DNA of 64,000 bases from Eledone cirrhosa (lineage: Eukaryota): NCBI GenBank assembly GCA_964016885.1, contig OZ024749.1, positions 41,602,001-41,666,000 of the forward strand, read 5' to 3'. This document shows positions 3,966-42,031 of the stretch, piece after piece. Each line of letters starts with the position of its first letter. Positions within the stretch are counted from its first letter, which is position 1. The position numbers and the translations under genes were made by a program. The notes under the pieces are model-generated. The model was not told where the DNA came from, made no database searches, and worked only from the letters and a program-made list of their open reading frames with translations.

Positions 3966-4014
<49 letters not shown>

Positions 4015-4285
4015 TAAGAATAAAGGAACAAAGAATCAGTGTTGCATCATAACATATTACATATGTTTCATTGTCGATCAGCTCGAGGAATGATGCATTA
4101 TTGATCGAACCTGATCAGAGATGAGCTTACATACTGAAGCATATCTGAGGATCTTTCGATTCCAGAGTCAGATTCAATCAATAATAGATCATTCCTCGAG
4201 CTGATCGACAGTGAAACATATGTAATATGTTATAATGCAACACTGATTCTTTCTTCCTTTATTCTTATACTATATATATATATAT

Positions 4286-5160: not shown

Positions 5161-8100
5161 ATAGAGCCTGTGGTGCTGAGATGGGGAGACCACTAATCAT
5201 GGGAGTACTCAATGCATGGGGAGATGCAGAGTGGGTACAGAGATATGTAAAATCCCGACTGCAGCTCCAAGCAGTTTCAGCTTGTCTGACACAAACTGAA
5301 TATAAGGGGAAAAGAAATTCTTACTCAGACGGTAACAGTTTTTGAAGCACCTTCTATTGTGCATTCACAAGTTGTAAGTGCATCTAACAATTATTACGTA
5401 AGTATATGTATATATAGATATAAATATATATACACACGCACAGACGTTGTGTCACATTTCCTACATCTTATTCTGTTCCTGAGAGTCTTAACATTTCATG
5501 ACAGAAGTCAATATAAGAGGTGGGGCGTGGCAGGAGGAGGAAGGGTTGTTGCTTTGTTGACTGAAAAACTAGAACATTGAAAGACTACTATTGGTAGTAA
5601 AATCTATTGTAAATAGACTGACATGAAGAATGTGTGTCAATATAAAACTTTGCACATCAATCCAACCCATGTTATGAAGCAAGGGTAGACAAAAAAAAAA
5701 TGAAGTGTTAAAAAGAATTAAATTAAAAATGAAGAAAGTACAAACCCGACATGTTAATTTTAGATCATTTTTGTGAAAACAAAAATGAAATTAAAAACAG
5801 AAATGTTTGACCCTTTCGTTACCATATTTCCAATGAAAGACACTGTATATGATTTTCAATTAATTTTGAAAATAATGAAGAATTTGGAAGGATTTAGTAA
5901 AATATACTAACTTTCTCATTATTAAGCTGGTGTTTGGAACATAACAAATATTCTTACATAAAATTATGATGGAAGATTTTTAGATAAATAAAAACACTTT
6001 AAATCAAAAGGCTTTATATCAGAGAAACAGGCAAATTGGCATTAGCTTCTGGAACAGCTCCTCGTTTTAAAGTGTTTAAATTTATCTAAAAAAAACAACC
6101 CTTCCATCATAATTTTATATAAGAAAATTTTATTAAATTATGTTTCAAACACCAGCTTAAAAAATGATATCTGATTCAGGGTGAAGGTCATCAATTTGTG
6201 TGGAGGCATGTGGCCTAGTAGGAAAGGTGTTGGACTTTGATAAAAATGATGTGGGTTCAATTCCTGGACTGGGTTGTGTGTTGTGTTCTTGAGCGAAACA
6301 CTTCATTTCACATTCCTTCAGTATACCCAACTGAAAATTAGTACCAACAATAGCTGAGGGGTTTAACCCTGCAATGGACAGACATCCTGTCCAGGGAAAC
6401 AGATTTGTATTTTCAGTCACTTAATGGCATGTAAAATCTGATGAGTTTCTAGGCTCAAGACAGACTTTAGACCAACAATTCGTGGGTGGAGTGGAGGGGG
6501 GGGGGGGGGTGATTAGGTCGGCCTTGGTATTTGACTGATACTTTATTGTATCAACCTTGAAAAGATGAAAAGCAAAGTTGACTTTGGTGGGATTCGAACA
6601 CAGAATGTTAAGAGCTAGAAAAATACTGGTAAGCATTTGTCCGACGCTCTAATCCATCACCCTAAACACAAGATTAACAATGATAAAAGTTATATTATTA
6701 AATCCCTTTTATTTCTTGATTATTTTCAAAATTATTTGAAAATCATAGGCTGTGTCTTTTATGTTAATGAAAGAGTAAAAGCAAGATTGGTGTTTGTTAA
6801 AAAAGATTCTTGTTTGATGCACATTGCTGTTGAAATGTTGTAAATGTCCTTAGTAAAAGCAGATATTAAAGATGATAAGCTCAGTAGGGTTATCAGCAAA
6901 TACCCAGCAATAAGATGTTTTTTTAAAAATTTATTTAGTTAGTAGCTGATAGCTGGATGGGAGACAGCAGTGTACTTGTGGTGGGGGATAGGGGACAGTG
7001 AGGTGAGGTCCTAATGGTGAGGGACAGTAGTGTACTTGTGGTGGGTATTAGGGGACAGCAGTGTTCTAGTGGTGGGAGACAGCAGTGTCTGAGTGGTGGG
7101 GGACTGTGATGTCCTAGTGGTGTTGTCTGGTCACAGTTGTTCATTAACAGCCTCAAGTGTTATCAACAAAATACCAGATAAAAGCAAAGCTCTGGCTTCA
7201 CAGAAATATATGAATATACTCTACAACATGGACTGAGTACACTTCCTTTCATTTCTTAAACAAAAAAAAAATGTGTGTGTATCTGTGTATAATGTGTGTG
7301 TATACGTCGAAACGGCCGGAGCCCAGCCGTTGGGGTCCTGAATCTTTTCATATATATATATATAAAAATATATATAAAACTATGAGATCCCTTCCACTTA
7401 ATCTTCAGACATCTGAAGACTACAGTGGCATGAAACCCACGTAGGAAGAAAGAAAATTCAGTAAAAAAATAAATAAAACATATTCTACAATATGTAATAA
7501 ATGTTTCCTTCCTCACGTGTTTAGAAAAAATAACATGGATCAGTCAAGGTTATGCTAGTACCAGTGATGTCATTGGTTAATCCAGAGGTGTGCTACACCT
7601 TGTGTAAATATTTTATTTACAGAAGGTGTAGGCCAGCTCTGGATGAAACAATCAAACCAATAGTACTACAATAACCTTGACTGATCTCATGAAGTTATAT
7701 ATACATATATTTACCTCTATGTGTGTATATGTAAGTATGTATGCATCAGAAAAAAGAAATGGCAATATACTTTTTAAAAAGGTGAGAATCATAACCGTAA
7801 AATTATAAACTGAAAGCAATTCAAGAAGTGATACATGCTTTAATAGTAAATAAAAATTGATAATAAAAACGTCCATTTTGATCTCCCATCATCCATCATG
7901 CACAACGAGTGAGATATAAAATGGCTTTTTACTCATCGAAAAGCTGTAACATTTTGGTTAAGAAACATAAACTATTCCAAATTGGAACACATTTAATGAA
8001 ATATCAGCAATTTAGACAAACCTATCTTACATCTGAGAGAAAAATATGTAAGAAGAGCTTTAACTTGAACACAGAGTTACAGTTATGGTGATTTGTTGGG

Positions 8101-13318: not shown

Positions 13319-15424
13319 AAATTATTATTACTATATATATATATATATATATACAAAATTATTATTATTACTATATATATATATATATACATACATACAC
13401 AAACACTTAACTCTTCTGTGGGATGGAGAGAGAAAAGTTTATCAAGTAAATGAGAGATAGAGAGGGGAGGGTAAAATAGGTGCGCAGTAAAGAATATGGA
13501 GAGGAACTGTGTCTGAGAACAGAGAGAGAGATAATAGAAAGGAAGAAACCATTCCTAAACTACATGGCATAACAGCAGGTATTACATTATAAGGAACAGG
13601 TATTTCATCATAGGTAGTATATAACAGATACTAATATAATAACTACAATATGGCAGGTGACTACAGGGCAGGTGTTTATATGACAGGTGACTATATGACA
13701 GGTGACTATATGAAAGGTAAATATATGGCAGGTGACTAATGCAGCAGATCCTACTCATCAAAAATTGAACATCTAGTTGAATAGGAATGAAAAAAAAGAT
13801 TCATATATATATATATATACACACATAATAATGAAATAGTGCAGAAACATTGCACACGGATTGGCAAAACTAGTCAGGACTTTGAAGAAAAGATAGTTAT
13901 TTTTTTGTCTATTATTTTCTATTTTGTAATTTGATATATATATACTGTAGTATAGGTTTGGTAGAAATATCCAAGAGTTTAGAGCACTCAGTCCATAAGG
14001 ACGAGTTAAGTATAACTAGTTACAACAGTGACATATACAAGTACTTAAGTTTTGTTGGGTTATACACCCCAGCTCATTCAGCTGAATGAGTTGAGGTGTA
14101 TAACTCAATGAAACTTAAGTACCTGTATATATCACTGTTGTAACTAATTATATATATATATACATTTGTGTTGGAGCTCTGAAATAGGGATGTATATATG
14201 AATGTACGTATTGTATATTTGATAATATACTGTATGTTTATTTTAAAACATTTTGAAGGCATTTTGGTATGAATAGTCACATACCCAGCTTCAGCAAAAA
14301 CAATGGGGAATAACCAACGCGTTTCTCGTTGTTTAGAGGTTATCAAGGATATACCCCTCTCTCTATTTTCGAGAGAGGGGTATATATCCTTGATAACAGC
14401 TAAACAGCAGTTTTACACATAGAAAGCTCCCTCTGAGGCACATGCCCGGGCAAGGTATCATTGTGGAAGATAGAAGCCACCCATGCATACCCGTCTCCCC
14501 TTTCCAATGACAGATTTGTCAAAGGAAAAAGCAAAGACCAATATAGCTTGGCACTAGAGACGTTTTTTTTCCCAGCTGAGTGTGCTGGAGCAATGTGAAA
14601 TAAAGTGTCTTGCTCAAGAAGACAATAGATTGCCTGGTTCAGAAATTGAACTCACAACCTCATGATTGTGAGCCCAACACTAACCGACACACCTTCAAAT
14701 ATGTGTGTGTGTGTATATATATATATATATGTGAGTCCCGGGTTCAATTGGGGGTAACCACAGTAAGTAAGGTACTCAATACATTAGTAGAGTGTATACA
14801 ACAAATTTAATATAGAAATGGCTTCTACAGGACTAGAAATGTTTCATTCGAAGGAAATCATCAGGAAAAGGCCTGATGATGTCCTTCAAACGAAACAGTT
14901 CTATTCCTGTAGAAGCCATTTCTATATTAAATTTTGTTAAATATATAATATGTATAAATAGAGAGATATCATCATTGTTTTCTGTCCATCTGCATTGGAC
15001 TGAATTGCACAAACTGAGACTAGACCAGGGGAACACATCTGGAGGGGTAATTTATGCAATTTTATCAACTATTATATCTAGCGATTGACTGTTACTGCAC
15101 TTATTTTCTGTGTTTAGGACGTTCACATTTTCAAATTTCAAACACTCCCAAAGCTTTGATAGTTCATATATACATATATGATATATACATATATATATCA
15201 TATATGATATATATATATATATATCATATATGATATATATATATATCATATATGATATATATATATATATATATATCATATATGATATATATATATATAT
15301 ATATATATCATATATGATATATATATATATATATATATATCATATATGATATATATATATATATATATATCATATATGATATATATATCATATATGATAT
15401 ATATATATATATATATATCATATA

Positions 15425-16728: not shown

Positions 16729-16763
<35 letters not shown>

Positions 16764-17622
16764 TTGCGAGGTTTTTTATATGAAATCGTGTGTCGAAACA
16801 GATATTGTTATATTTGGGGAGGGTCATATTTGCGTAATATTGCCAGAATTAATAACAGAACACACTCACTGTTTGGTTGGTTTTCGCTTCTCGCTGTCTT
16901 TTATATATATATATCTGCGATCTAACTTACTCGGTCCTCAATGTTGCCATTGACTGACCGGCGGTCAAAAATAATACAGATACAATATAGACAAACACAT
17001 ATATATATAGTTTACATAAATCTTTCGTTGCACATCTGCAACATCGTCAGTGGTGTTATATTCATTGTTCCTCCTGTTGTGTTGTATGTCTACGCCATTT
17101 TTTTGTTGTTCAGTCTGTCTATAGACAGACTGAACAAAAAAATGGCGTAGACATACAACACAACAGGAGGAACAATGAATATAACACCACTGACGATGTT
17201 GCAGATGTGCAACGAAAGATTTATGTAAACTATATATATATGTGTTTGTCTATATTGTATCTGTATTATTTTTGACCGCCGGTCAGTCAATGGCAACATT
17301 GAGGACCGAGTAAGTTAGATCGCAGATATATATATATAAAAGACAGCGAGAAGCGAAAACCAACCAAACAGTGAGTGTGTTCTGTTATTAATTCTGGCAT
17401 TATTACGCAAATATGACCCTCCCCAAATATAACAATATATATATATATATATATATATCATATATATATATATATATATATATATCATATATATCATATA
17501 TATCATATATATATATATCATATATATATATATATATATCATATATATATATATATATCATATATATATATATATATCATATATATATATATATATCATA
17601 TATATATATATATATCATATAT

Positions 17623-22648: not shown

Positions 22649-23708
22649 AATGTGTATGTATGTAGAAAAGCAAGAAAGAAATGTTACATACTTGGCAGAT
22701 CTGATCACAACAGTATGGTCTGTGGAATGCAATATTTTAGACAAATGGTCAGCCACACTATCTTCATAGATGCCAATACCTTCAAACTGGGGTGAAATAA
22801 AGAATAGAAAAATATACAATAGTAACTTGGAGAGAGAGAGAGATAACAAAGTAGAGAGGCAGTTATTAAATGGTGCTTCTATGAAAGCTTAAGTAACGAC
22901 TAGACTAGAACAATAATCAGTTTTAATACAAAACGCTCTCACACATACATCATCACTGTTTTACATCCCTTTAACATGCTGGTATAGGCTGGACTAACCA
23001 TCACATTCTGTGACAAGGAACATCAGATGATTGTGTCTAGCTCATATATGCTATTTTGGCATGGATTCTACAGTTGGATCACCTTCCTAATATGGCATTA
23101 GGAAGGAAGGGCATATATATATATATAAAGTTATATCTGTATATATATATATATATATATCAACCACATTTACATATATATATACTTCCCAAAGAAAAAG
23201 GAGAAAGTGACTTCAAAGTTTACACGTTGCCTCTTCAAACAGTGATAGAGGGTTTTTATATGAGAGTTTGTGCATGCATGGGTGTGTGCGTGCGTGTGCA
23301 TGTGTGGTGTCAATAGCATTTATATAGTTTATGTTTGCTTGGGTTCGTGGCTGGCTTTGGTATAAACTGAGTATATTTATGTTAAAGTTAAAGCAATTGA
23401 TGGTCATAGTTCCAATATATACATCCATATATATATATATATATACATCTCTATATATATATACTAGTATCCATCTAATTATGGAGGGGCCGATAATGTT
23501 GTTAGAACTCAGTGGCTGAGAGGAAGATGGAGTGATAGATCAGGGATTTCAAGACTAGAAATAGTTAGTGACATAACCACTGCATTTTAGTCGATATATA
23601 GATCTACCACGATCAATCAACCTTCAGAAACGATCGTAAAACAATGAACTAATTAAGAACCCATCTCCGACTTTTTTGTTTTATTTTCATTGTTCATTAA
23701 ACACGCAG

Positions 23709-23777
<69 letters not shown>

Positions 23778-23792
23778 TATATATATATAAAT

Positions 23793-23845
<53 letters not shown>

Positions 23846-24286
23846 AATATATGTAGGAGGTGAGTTTTATTGTAGTACAATAAAGCAATGCAGATATCGG
23901 ATAAGAAGCACTCTACAGTTTGTGGGACTGGAGTATGCATAATATAAGATCAAAAGATGGTTAAAGGAGTTCCATATATTTTATTATGCGCATTTCAAAA
24001 ACAAACATCATCAAACAATAATATTTGTGTTTTCATCAGATAAAACAGGAGAACATGATATGAAGGCTAAAAAACACTTGTTGATAGTGCAGTTTTAAAC
24101 CAACATATGTTGATTTAAAACTGCACTATCAACAAGTGTTTTTTAGCCTTCATATCATGTTCTCCTGTTTTATCTGATGAAAACACAAATATTATTGTTT
24201 GATGATGTTTGTTTTTGAAATGCGCATAATAAAATATATGGAACTCCTTTAACCATCTTTTGATCTTATATTATATATAAATATAT

Positions 24287-24332
<46 letters not shown>

Positions 24333-24822
24333 TGTATATATACTTATAATATAAATACCAAATAATATCATTATATTTACACATTTCAGATAATTTATCT
24401 CTAAATAATTACTTGTATGATTCTGTAATTGTTAATTAATAATGATAATTAATTAATTAATAAGGTAAGGTACAGTAAGATACAAAAAAGGGGGAAATAA
24501 TAATGAAAGACAAAGAGAATGACAGAATGAGAGGATGAGAATAAGCTAAGTTACTATAGCAACCTGTTGAGACAACTTTCTGGGTGTAGGCATGGTACCT
24601 TCATATGTCAGTATACTCCATCTGAGGAGAGGAAGAATGGGGGCAGGTTTACAGTCAGTTTCAATGTAAAGAACAAGGTTTTAAATCATCATCATCAAGA
24701 TCACTAACACTCTCACCATAACTATCATCATCATTAATACTATCGACAACATCATCATTAGCAGCAGCACTCACTATTACCACCATCACTCACTACTCAT
24801 CAGCTGCAGCACTGATTTTTCA

Positions 24823-24853
<31 letters not shown>

Positions 24854-27800
24854 TCACTCACTATCATAATCATCACCAACATCATCCTCATCAGCAACAT
24901 CACTCATACACCATCCTTATCATCATCATCACCACCATGATTAACTTCATTGCTATAATAACCATAACCATCACGATTATGCATTGTAGTGCTGCATTAG
25001 TATTTATGCAGTGCTGCTGTAGTGTTTTTGCAGTGCTGCTGTAGTGTTTTTGCAGTGCTGTTATAGTGCTGCTGTAGTGTTTTGCAGTGCTGTTGAAGTG
25101 CTGCTGTAGTGTTTTTGCAGTGCTGCTGTAGTGTTTTTGCAGTGCTGTTATAGTGCTGCTGTAGTGTTTTGCAGTGCTGTTGAAGTGCTGCTGTAGTGTT
25201 TTTGCAGTGCTGTTATAGTGCTGCTGTAGTGTTTTGCAGTGCTGTTGAAGTGCTGCTGTAGTGTTTTTGCAGTGCTGTTGAAGTGCTGCTGTAGTGTTTT
25301 TGCAGTGCTGCTGTAGTGTTTTGCAGTGCTGCTGTAGTGTTTTTGCAGTGCTGTTGAAGTGCTGCTGTAGTGTTTTGCAGTACTTTTGGAGTGTTTTTGC
25401 AGTGCTGTTGAAGTGCTGCTGTAGTGTTTTGCAGTACTTTTGGAGTGTTTTTGCAGTGCTGTTATAGTGCTGCTGTAGTGTAGTAGTAGTAGTAGTAGTA
25501 CTAGTAGCAGTAGTAGTAGTAGTATGTTCAAACCTCACTATACGTACCGATCCAACATCTTGATCTGAGAATGTTCCAGTTTCTCCAAGAGAGCATGTAG
25601 CTGGGTATCATCATCAAAGGCTGATCCCCACCCTAACACCCTGGCCAGATCATTACCAGTACCAAATGGTAACACTCCAATTTGACACTGCAACAGAGAG
25701 ATAGATAGATAGATAGATAGAAAGATAGATAGATAGAGAAATCAGACACCAAGTGGGCAAGGAAGGTGGGGCGAGGGGAATGTAAAGTACAAAAAGTAAA
25801 AAAAAAAAATCTAATAAAAAACATTACTAAAAAGTTGAAAACAAATTATTTAAGTTATAAAATTAAGAAATTGATTAATTATAAAATTAACAAAAAAAAA
25901 GTAACATAAAAAATACGAAAATAAAAAAAAATAAATTTAATGGTAAAAAATTATAAAAATAAAAGTATATAAAAAACACAAATAAAAACAAACAGAAAAA
26001 TAAGTAAAAACAAAGAAATACACATGAAACGGAATAAAAAGCTGAAAAAAAGTCGGTTTTAACATTTGGTGTAGCTCAGACATGTCTGTTTGGCTTTACT
26101 CCCAAACTTCTCTCTCTCTCCCTTTTGTTATCTCTCACATATACATATATATATACACACACACACACTCTTGCTATCTCTCACAGACATAAATATGCAC
26201 ATACATGTACACACAAACACACATACACACACACGCATACTCTCTTGCTATCTCTCATATGAACTCACACACATACATACATTCACACCACCACCACCAC
26301 CAGCTTAACCCACAATACCATAACCCAACACCATCACCACCACCACCCTAACCAGCAATAGCATAACCCCCACCACCAGCCTAATCAGCAATACCATAAC
26401 CCCAACACCACTACCACCAACCCACTGGAAGTACTCCACTGTCCCTGGGTACATTGCCAGCTATTAATAAACAACAGTTCAGATTTAAACATCAGCCACA
26501 CAAGATGTACCTACTTGTGCCAGTTTCTGAGCCAACAGTTTAACCCTTTCATTACTAAATATAATGAAATAACATTATATTTCAATTAATTAATGAAAAA
26601 TTTTGAGAGATTTACTAAAATTATTAATTATTTCATTACTAAGACAGTAACTCAACATGCGGTTCTTATATAAAATTATGTTGAAAGATTTTAATTTAAA
26701 TAGGAACTATAAAAAGATGGTTTTGTTCTATAGAACCAGAACCAGTTTTGACCAGGTTTATATTAAAAGAATTAATGAGGAATTCTAAGGGATTTAATAA
26801 AATTATTTATCATTTCATTACTAAGCTTAATTCTTATGTAGAATTATGTTGGAAGATTTCAATTTAAACCGGCTGTATCCAGCTAGAATTTTCTCACCCC
26901 TTTCTGTTCAAACTGGCTATAATTGATAAAATAACTACCAGTAAATTAGAGTTGATATGATTGGCTAAGCCCTTGAAAGTGGTGACCCAGCATGGCCACA
27001 GTCCAATGACTGAAAAAAGTGTAAATGCATACACACACACTCACACGAACGCATCCATGCACTCACGAATGCATATGTGCACTCAGACAAATGCATGCGC
27101 ACACACGCACACACAGAGAAATAAACATACCTGTTTGTGAATATCTAACTTATCTATTTCAGTTAGCACCCAGCCAATGCTGCCATCTCCTCCACAAACT
27201 AAAATTCGAAACTGGTGAAATTTCTGAAACAACCTTAAACTGTAAAGAAAAGAAGAATCATTAGATTCTGTGTACAATCCCAGTGTATGGCAACTTGTGC
27301 ATGTGTGTTACACACACACACACACACACACATATATAGTGTCCCAAAAATTGTATACACACTTCAACAGCATTCTAATAAAAGTGTGTATACATTTTTT
27401 GGGACACCCTGTATATATATTTAAATAAGGTAACAACCAAAGATAATACTTCAAATCATTTTATTAACGTCTACACATGTTTCAACTTTAATGTTACCAG
27501 GTAACATTTTAGTATCACCAGGACATCAATGTTGGATTTGGAGGATGACAATGGGTCTCATACCCACCTTTATTGATCTCTCTCTCTATATATATATATA
27601 TGTGTGCCCCAGCATGGCCACAATCTAATGACTGAAACCGATAAATGAAGTAAAAGTATACACAACTTACCCTGGGTAAGGGCCTCCATTCATAAGATCA
27701 AAGACCTGTGCAGGGTTTAACAACTGCTTAAATCGCCGCAAAAACTTAACACCCTAAAATTTAGAGAAATCCATTTGAAATATTAGTCTTGACAGAAAAA

Positions 27801-41679: not shown

Positions 41680-42031
41680 TTTCACCATTATATATAGCCT
41701 AGGACAGAACAAAGGAGGGGCACAAAAACAAAGAAAAGAATCCCCAGTCACTGAAGAGGTCACAGAATGTGTGACGAAAGAACTTTGACAATATATAAAC
41801 AATCATCTGGTTGTGGAACCAACCAACCAACCGGAAATTTATAAATTCCTAAATTTATAAATTTATTATAATAATAAATTGAAATGAAAGCACTGGTGCG
41901 TGTGTTTCTTATTGGCAACATGACCCTCCCAAAGTATAACAATATCGGTTTCAACACACGATTTCAGATAAAGAATCTTGCTAAACAAATTCAGAAACGA
42001 AATATATATATATATATATATATATATCAAT

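Follow-up and report, generated by a model that had tools for sequence, protein, structure and literature searches.

The locus studied here raises the question why an intron of a diacylglycerol kinase (DGK) gene holds two hammerhead motifs, one on each strand, that face each other within a single palindrome. The initial annotation of the window (i.e., of the whole stretch of 64,000 nucleotides that was analyzed) had read each strand as a full type I hammerhead and had suggested that the long hairpin formed in the DGK pre-mRNA creates a self-silenced cleavage site which ADAR editing or helicases might unmask. We address what the palindrome is, how its two arms may have come about, and what this implies for the hammerheads.

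Structure and setting of the palindrome

A spacer-less palindrome with arms of about 168 bp had been described, and this is what we find: both arms measure 168 bp, the spacer is 0, and a single mismatch separates them (24100 C vs. 24113 A). Two features had gone unnoticed, namely an 86-bp tail that is attached to one arm only and (TA)n sequence on both sides. Given this one-sided tail and the (TA)n surroundings, we delimit the insertion unit to positions 23853-24274 (422 bp). All features are listed in Table 1.

Table 1. Features of the insertion, its target flanks and the neighboring exons, in window positions
Feature	Positions	Strand	Remark
Tailed arm (168-bp PLE end module, pseudo-LTR)	23939..24106	-	sense on DGK pre-mRNA
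86-bp tail, tailed arm only	23853..23938	-	putative distal start of reverse transcription at its end
Tail-less arm (inverted 168-bp end module)	24107..24274	+	putative proximal start of reverse transcription at its end
Junction ATAT, 4-nt self-complementary overlap	24105..24108	.	both arms have their putative capped transcription start here
Type I hammerhead motif	24166..24236	+	predicted cut after 24228
Mirror hammerhead motif, sense on DGK pre-mRNA	23977..24047	-	predicted cut after 23985; predicted masked
Left target flank, (TA)n microsatellite	23720..23852	.	
Right target flank, short (TA)n remnant then (GA)n	24275..24331	.	
DGK exon upstream of host intron	24564..24621	-	splice signals; continues DAGK_cat exon 25541-25741
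DGK exon downstream of host intron	22692..22786	-	splice signals

The tailed arm matches the 3' ends of ORF-bearing copies by 88-99%. Judged by its sequence, the unit of 422 bp represents a truncated copy of an abundant Penelope-like element (PLE) that was inserted into the (TA)n of a DGK intron. The window copy is young, i.e., 27 of 170 sampled arms differ from it by two differences at most.

The DGK context, too, had been named correctly. Pfam hits to C1_1 and DAGK_cat on the minus strand (on three of nine window segments scanned) identify the host gene as a diacylglycerol kinase, and the insertion lies between the two exons of Table 1. Neither of these two exons has a profile hit, and we take them to belong to DGK partly on the grounds of DGK sequence. 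The host intron spans about 1.78 kb, provided that it holds no small exon. The adjoining DGK intron carries a minisatellite (24985-25516) of 11-bp units with a 54-bp higher-order spacing.

The hammerhead motif

Both arms hold CUGAUGA (24174-24180), GAAA (24217-24220) and the palindromic AUGCGCAU (24220-24227), followed by the AUA triplet. That is, the type I core positions are present in each arm (C3 U4 G5 A6 N7 G8 A9 / G12 A13 A14, A15.1-U16.1, H17). With regard to the initial reading of a full type I hammerhead per arm, the core, the palindromic stem III and the AUA site stand, while the 16-bp stem II has to be revised to 15 pairs (three of them G-U) plus one C-U mismatch; stem I comprises 8 bp. 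The placement of the predicted cut sites on both strands agrees with the sequence. The closing pair of stem II is A-U in the window motif, in contrast to the G10.1-C11.1 pair usual in hammerheads (Cervera and De la Pena 2014, PMC4209133), which is also missing from several Hydra-clade motifs (PMC8557442, File S2). Of 170 arms, 154 carry A-U at 10.1-11.1 and 15 carry G-U.

An Rfam search, proposed as a check in the initial annotation, returns no hammerhead family, neither at gathering level for the whole window nor at E<=10 for positions 23800-24400. Rfam microRNA matches at E<=10 were rejected, as all are below the gathering score and reflect the long hairpin only. Furthermore, the isolated 71-nt arm does not fold better than its shuffles (z -0.60). 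The case for the hammerhead thus rests on its core and on the variation within the family.

This variation was assessed on 170 full arms. The core is intact in 158 of them, with N7 as the sole common core variant; 15 of 1,870 letters at 11 core positions are variant, compared to 792 of 13,430 outside the motif. All eight common stem variants retain pairing (p~0.004 if half were expected by chance). Each of them is one-sided, exchanging A-U or C-G for G-U, and the resulting G-U pairs form on the sense strand only; a two-sided, i.e., fully compensatory, stem change was found in none of the 170 arms. The stem III 8-mer AUGCGCAU is nearly invariant (14 variant letters out of 1,020) and its self-duplex is computed at -10.5 kcal/mol, such that stem III is predicted to be able to pair between two copies. 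Based on these letter counts, the hammerhead is under selection in an active PLE family, where it probably acts on tandem transcripts. The initial annotation was right in assigning both motifs to PLE-type hammerheads, whose palindromic stem III would require a partner.

For the window copy, folding predicts a different state. A lone arm has a stem III of 2 bp and no partner in cis, and its hammerhead fold (-6.4 kcal/mol) compares to a best fold of -10.6 kcal/mol; when two copies are co-folded, the clean dimer hammerhead is not the best structure. The full unit on the DGK strand (422 nt) folds into a hairpin of -279.5 kcal/mol in which the core bases pair with their mirror at a probability of at least 0.997. 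It had been argued that the sense motif follows its own complement in the DGK pre-mRNA and would be masked by it. This order is indeed present, and the hammerhead of the window stub is predicted to be buried in the 168-bp hairpin and inert.

The parent family and its protein

To quantify the family, we counted exact matches in the own genome (3.0 Gb), which provides lower bounds; reversed-pattern controls gave 0. A 21-nt hammerhead piece has at least 23,463 copies, the 3' anchor at least 23,441, the tail end at least 13,207 and a 20-mer of the reverse transcriptase (RT) core at least 1,013. Fold-backs at the same junction as in the window occur at no fewer than 1,674 loci. Longer copies bear ORFs and are found in tandem or inverted full-length layouts. 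Among 47 two-armed insertions, 39 have (TA)-rich sequence in both flanks.

The parent copy L031 contains a single ORF of 809 aa that encodes an RT and, at the C-terminus, a GIY-YIG domain. Pfam and PDB sequence searches with this protein gave no significant match, while a protein profile search reached a retron RT at E 0.011. The structure model of the L031 protein (pLDDT 87.5) has reverse transcriptases and telomerases as top fold matches. We aligned L031 with 58 relatives picked from the best 150; among these 59 sequences, Pfam reports RVT_1 in four and GIY-YIG in three. Conserved across the alignment are YRDD, DKT, RW, CxCX5C, the GIY-YIG residues, CxxC with E, and N with CxH.

Several of these features are marks of Hydra-clade PLEs, which include the C-terminal GIY-YIG, DKT, RW(K) and CxCX5C (Craig et al. 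2021, PMC8557442). The conserved GIY-YIG residues are Y689, Y702-x-G704, R713, H717, E774 and N787. DKT, and not DKG, is found at D132 K133 T134, with D and K in all 39 covering relatives and T in 30. Of the RWK motif, R46 and W47 are conserved (28 and 31 of 32), whereas L031 has T and L045 and L046 have I at the third position. The cysteines C668, C670 and C676 lie in the linker, C768 and C771 beside E774, and C796 and H798 beside N787. CCHH is absent, and the sole cysteine within the GIY-YIG core, C691, corresponds to A in 46 of 49 relatives. Insertion into (TA)n together with a hammerhead is likewise as in the Hydra clade. The monomer of 3,709 bp (copy L046) exceeds the usual Hydra-clade length of less than 3 kb, which is a tendency and not diagnostic (PMC8557442). 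Going by its motifs, the family carries Hydra-clade marks.

Some further observations concern the longer copies. The L031 protein (L031 1865-4294) has an asparagine-rich linker of low model confidence (residues 596-664) before the endonuclease, which recalls the N-rich inserts of rotifer PLEs (PMC3846280). The 3' UTR of about 900 bp starts with (CA)n(TA)n directly past the stop and has internal tandem repeats (L031; L046 1100-2070). Family arms are in places separated or flanked by reading frames that belong to other retroelements (L043 1815-2291 and L049 5713-6744, both minus strand), and the one in L043 shows a GIY-YIG-like motif with flanking cysteines.

Arm and tail are also partly found in sequencing runs X1-X15, which bear 11 organism labels. 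Of the four runs examined at read level (X1, X4, X6 and X24), X4 and X6 contain near-identical pieces, and the family thus extends beyond a single species label. Among raw short DNA reads of another sample, 291 run from the tail-less end into (AT)n and opposite-strand joints are present, where a joint seen in 89 reads represents one start. All raw-read evidence comes from a single arm-plus-tail query and speaks for the family and not for the window locus.

Arm ends, junctions and haplotypes

Young insertions in large number allow for fossil statistics on how the arms are made. We used exact-match patterns and sampled arms from the first 27 Mb and junctions from the first 117 Mb of contig C1. 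Among the 100 arms listed, the 3' ends fall onto two fixed sites, i.e., positions 165-175 in 51 and 249-254 in 49. The 5' ends show a hot spot at positions -2 to +1 (30 of 100, a 33-fold excess per position), while 32 are spread over positions 2-143 and 38 lie further upstream. Out of 69 sampled stretches, three of which were chosen for being pairs, 49 consist of two outward-facing arms, and 46 of these 49 combine one tailed with one tail-less arm. The insertion sizes form a continuum from 98 bp to 5.3 kb with many of 400-435 bp.

The 51 junctions examined fall into 22 types. The exact ATAT overlap of the window is seen in 19 of them, and two more are perfect palindromes with a longer center. 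A G precedes the start in 13 of 20 arms, compared to 5 of 26 arms that end elsewhere (p=0.002, with arms of one insertion not being independent in this test); by eye, 6 of the 13 cases could be templated by the partner arm. Genome-wide, the base before the start is G in 2,329 and A/T in 2,417 cases, where the composition predicts 15-23% G. For spacers of at least 10 nt, C is the base on the cDNA side in 12 of 24 cases, and the templated G is found in 3.

The 5' reach was compared within 47 pairs of a tailed and a tail-less arm; one pair with two tails, two pairs without any tail and all one-ended stretches were set aside. In 27 pairs it is the tail-less arm that extends further, in 9 the tailed arm, and 11 are tied (p=0.004). 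In 6 of the 47 pairs, the tailed arm stops already at position 150 or above. Since each arm holds sequence that the other lacks in most pairs (27 of 47), neither arm is a simple copy of the other.

We also compared haplotypes between the arms, for which 3 of the 51 palindromes were dropped because of short arms. One haplotype is common to both arms in 40 of the remaining 48 palindromes (2 of the 48 stem from one rearranged locus and are poorly aligned), while the respective value between loci is 9.5% and many haplotypes exist overall. That is, arms share a haplotype within a locus and differ across loci, which indicates that a new palindrome forms with each insertion.

Few arms begin at the ribozyme cut. 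The whole genome yields 186 matches over positions 120-129, using a pattern that catches AT-rich junctions only and admits false positives from small duplications (L183, L196). Among the first 100 such matches, 12 are at position 123 compared to 6-9 each at 121, 122 and 124-127 (by eye); by script, the cut-site position accounts for 3 of 30. No clear 5' end peak at the cut site is thus visible in the genomic copies.

Origin of the head-to-head arms

Taken together, the fixed ends, the 5' hot spot, the extra G, the asymmetry between arms, the shared haplotypes and the rarity of cut-site ends favor two cDNAs from a capped, uncut sense RNA. We therefore consider it probable that the arms of the 422-bp PLE insertion with its Hydra-clade motifs are two such separate cDNAs that were joined head to head; cap, start site and cleavage are here inferred from DNA fossils. 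In the proposed course of events, the endonuclease of the element would cut both strands within (TA)n, and each DNA end would prime reverse transcription at an internal AU-rich start, i.e., at about arm positions 168 and 254. Both cDNAs would pass through the intact hammerhead up to the cap at arm position -1, where their 3' ends would anneal through ATAT and be filled in. One RNA molecule probably serves both DNA ends. The two mirror hammerheads would be a likely by-product of the double copying and not a switch of the host gene.

Two internal RT starts have been observed in vitro for the anole PLE (PMC11167929), with which the two starts proposed here are in accordance. With regard to the extra G, the respective base marks a copied cap at full-length 5' junctions of LINE-1 (PMC11702581, PMC4729875), and it is therefore likely a trace of the RNA cap.

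Within this reading, a variant has two RNAs held together by the palindromic stem III, each templating one arm. We regard it as unlikely, even though the -10.5 kcal/mol duplex of the nearly invariant 8-mer would provide the contact and a related PLE protein is predicted to be a dimer (PMC11167929). In 2 of 48 palindromes, the arms differ at four diagnostic sites; these arm-discordant cases (L060 at G000:C1:26849162 and L061 at C1:27238199) hint at two RNAs templating one insertion. Since 40 of 48 pairs share a haplotype, however, the two partners would usually need to come from one source locus. Moreover, a tailed arm that falls short of its partner (27 vs. 9 pairs) and may stop at position 150 or above (6 of 47) is expected if the distal RT meets the proximal cDNA on one and the same RNA.

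Head-to-head junction palindromes of rotifer PLEs have been explained in print by self-priming (PMC3846280). Here, an antisense transcript or a single cDNA would fold back and prime its own copying, and the endonuclease would trim the hairpin ends at 168 and 254 afterwards. Perfect palindromes at 19 ATAT junctions and two further ones with a longer center are what such a process would leave, and the shared haplotypes also fit it, as they would fit later gene conversion. It predicts, however, neither an extra G nor varied spacers with 22 junction types among 51, and the 27 of 47 pairs with private sequence in each arm require that both ends were trimmed subsequently. In addition, two RT starts on sense RNA were shown in vitro for another PLE (PMC11167929). 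We thus deem self-priming improbable for this family, i.e., the fossil evidence, as far as sequence can tell, disfavors the antisense self-priming of PMC3846280.

Given two cDNAs joined head to head as the preferred origin, what is left of the idea that the host keeps a self-silenced ribozyme in the DGK pre-mRNA, to be released by ADAR or helicases? The masking it builds on is predicted by folding. Heavy editing is known for palindromic repeats in frog and for PLEs in lizard (PMC5625713), such that editing of the hairpin is plausible by analogy, and inverted Penelope copies in flies give rise to siRNA (PMC3681739). The window copy is, however, a young one among thousands, and its geometry is automatic: whichever strand of a head-to-head pair is read, the antisense copy precedes the sense one, and thus the order needs no selection. 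At least 1,674 loci have the same junction. Once freed, an arm would still be left without a stem III partner for a dimer in cis. A-to-I editing of the AU-rich core would more likely destroy than free it. PLE hammerheads also cleave poorly alone (PMC4209133) or need the protein of the element (PMC11167929). Among the rare variants of 170 arms, read on the sense strand, there is no ADAR imprint on the templates, i.e., 13 A>G (47 A sites) face 31 T>C (57 T sites). Beyond the predicted masking, nothing points to regulation or to ADAR unmasking, and we hold a special site of this kind to be very improbable.

Equally little speaks for a fixed non-autonomous palindrome, i.e., a master copy of the MITE or retrozyme kind that is multiplied as a whole. 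Many insertions of 400-435 bp and one exact junction shared by 19 of 51 would fit such a master. Yet 22 junction types over many arm haplotypes and sizes from 98 bp to 5.3 kb largely refute it, and no head-to-tail arrays of the stub were seen. A non-LTR retrozyme is ruled out by the head-to-head arms, which form no head-to-tail tandem, and by the ORF-bearing parent.

Finally, an assembly or long-read fold-back artefact at the window locus is hardly conceivable: although 24100 C is present in 0 of 308 raw reads of another sample that cover this position, the one-sided tail, the family-standard ends, the different flanks and the varied spacers across at least 1,674 loci contradict it, as do raw short reads of another sample, in which opposite-strand joints and the tail-less end are seen.

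Other palindromes in the window

A second palindrome (16761-17438) is located in (TA)n of another DGK intron. Its arms of about 318 bp are 98.6% alike, with a one-sided extension of 41 bp, and a hammerhead-like core is present at 17190 and in the mirror; the core 29-mer has 8,708 exact copies in the genome. By its layout, this is likely a second PLE family built in the same way. A further hammerhead-like motif (41747-41790) has a stem I of 4 bp, the core and a stem II of 5 bp, followed by an end (41917-41986) that is 86% like the extension 16761-16830 and then by (TA)n. The element at 41747-41986 is probably an older relative of the second palindrome's family, given this similarity. Older, decayed self-inverted stretches, 72-88% alike, are found at 4012-4270, 5919-6163, 7534-7691 and 14803-14934.

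Comparison with known elements

In LINE-1 twin priming, both ends of the target prime, which gives an inverted 5' segment, and each of the two cDNAs copies a separate part of the RNA. In the window family, by contrast, the cDNAs would overlap and thus yield a palindrome, and they would start from two fixed internal sites. An extra G at full-length 5' junctions is common to both (PMC11702581, PMC4729875).

With Hydra-clade PLEs as described in PMC8557442, the window family shares the protein motifs, the insertion into (TA)n and a hammerhead close to the 3' end. It differs in its 3.7-kb monomer, long 3' UTR, 86-bp tail, very long stem II, the 4-nt GCGC center of stem III and its ~13,000 insertions. 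Furthermore, the window hammerhead is unlike any in File S2 of that paper, including the octopus family Hydra-1_Obim. The annotation of Penelope-13_HM in the supplement includes a 5'-truncated copy in inverted orientation and hammerheads on both strands.

Endonuclease-bearing PLEs are known to leave insertions with head-to-head arms, a tail at one end and palindromic junctions (Arkhipova et al. 2013, PMC3846280), and they also have an initiator-like motif in the pLTR in common with the window family. While self-priming on an antisense template was proposed for those elements, the hot spot, the G and the asymmetry favor two cDNAs of sense RNA for the family studied here.

The anole Poseidon PLE, for which both strands are cut and extended in vitro (Frangieh et al. 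2024, PMC11167929), belongs to a different clade. It resembles the window family in its AT-rich target, in two internal RT starts that bound the tail and in that hammerhead cleavage is not needed. Its hammerhead overlaps the ORF start, whereas it lies at least ~190 nt upstream of the ORF here. Head-to-head joints are not treated in the text of PMC11167929, to the extent available.

As for the ribozyme itself, the motif agrees with the minimal hammerheads of metazoan PLEs in being type I with a long stem II and a palindromic stem III, and in its likely action as a dimer (PMC4209133). Dual hammerheads 100-700 bp apart on opposite strands are reported there for Schistosoma. Non-LTR retrozymes (bioRxiv 10.64898/2026.07.22.740005) share the type I motif and the palindromic stem III as well, but the window insertion forms no head-to-tail tandem.

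Implications

The DGK-intron locus is an ordinary transposon stub, and there is no reason to treat it as a regulatory ribozyme of DGK. Head-to-head PLE insertions and inverted pLTRs with a tail (PMC8557442, PMC3846280) as well as opposite-strand hammerhead pairs (PMC4209133) are already in print. In the literature covered, which comprised few subscription papers and had repeat databases outside its scope, neither the window family nor, for PLEs, a G derived from the cap or twin priming is reported. The value of the finding lies in the PLE family and in testable evidence on the origin of PLE inversions, not in the window locus. Pairs of head-to-head hammerheads are an expected product of PLE insertion, which calls for caution in genome scans.

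How tandem and inverted PLE structures arise and what their hammerheads do were named as open questions in PMC8557442. On both, the ~13,000 young insertions serve as statistical fossils, i.e., they speak of a likely capped start, two RT starts, overlapping cDNAs and hardly any ribozyme-cut templates. We tentatively extend this to a general picture, which we judge to be nearly as likely right as wrong: one capped, uncut RNA would provide two starts and thereby two 5' copies that are joined, such that each landing would leave a hairpin that buries its own ribozyme. At least 1,700 perfect hairpins of ~170 bp could then be a major source of double-stranded RNA for ADAR and small-RNA pathways.
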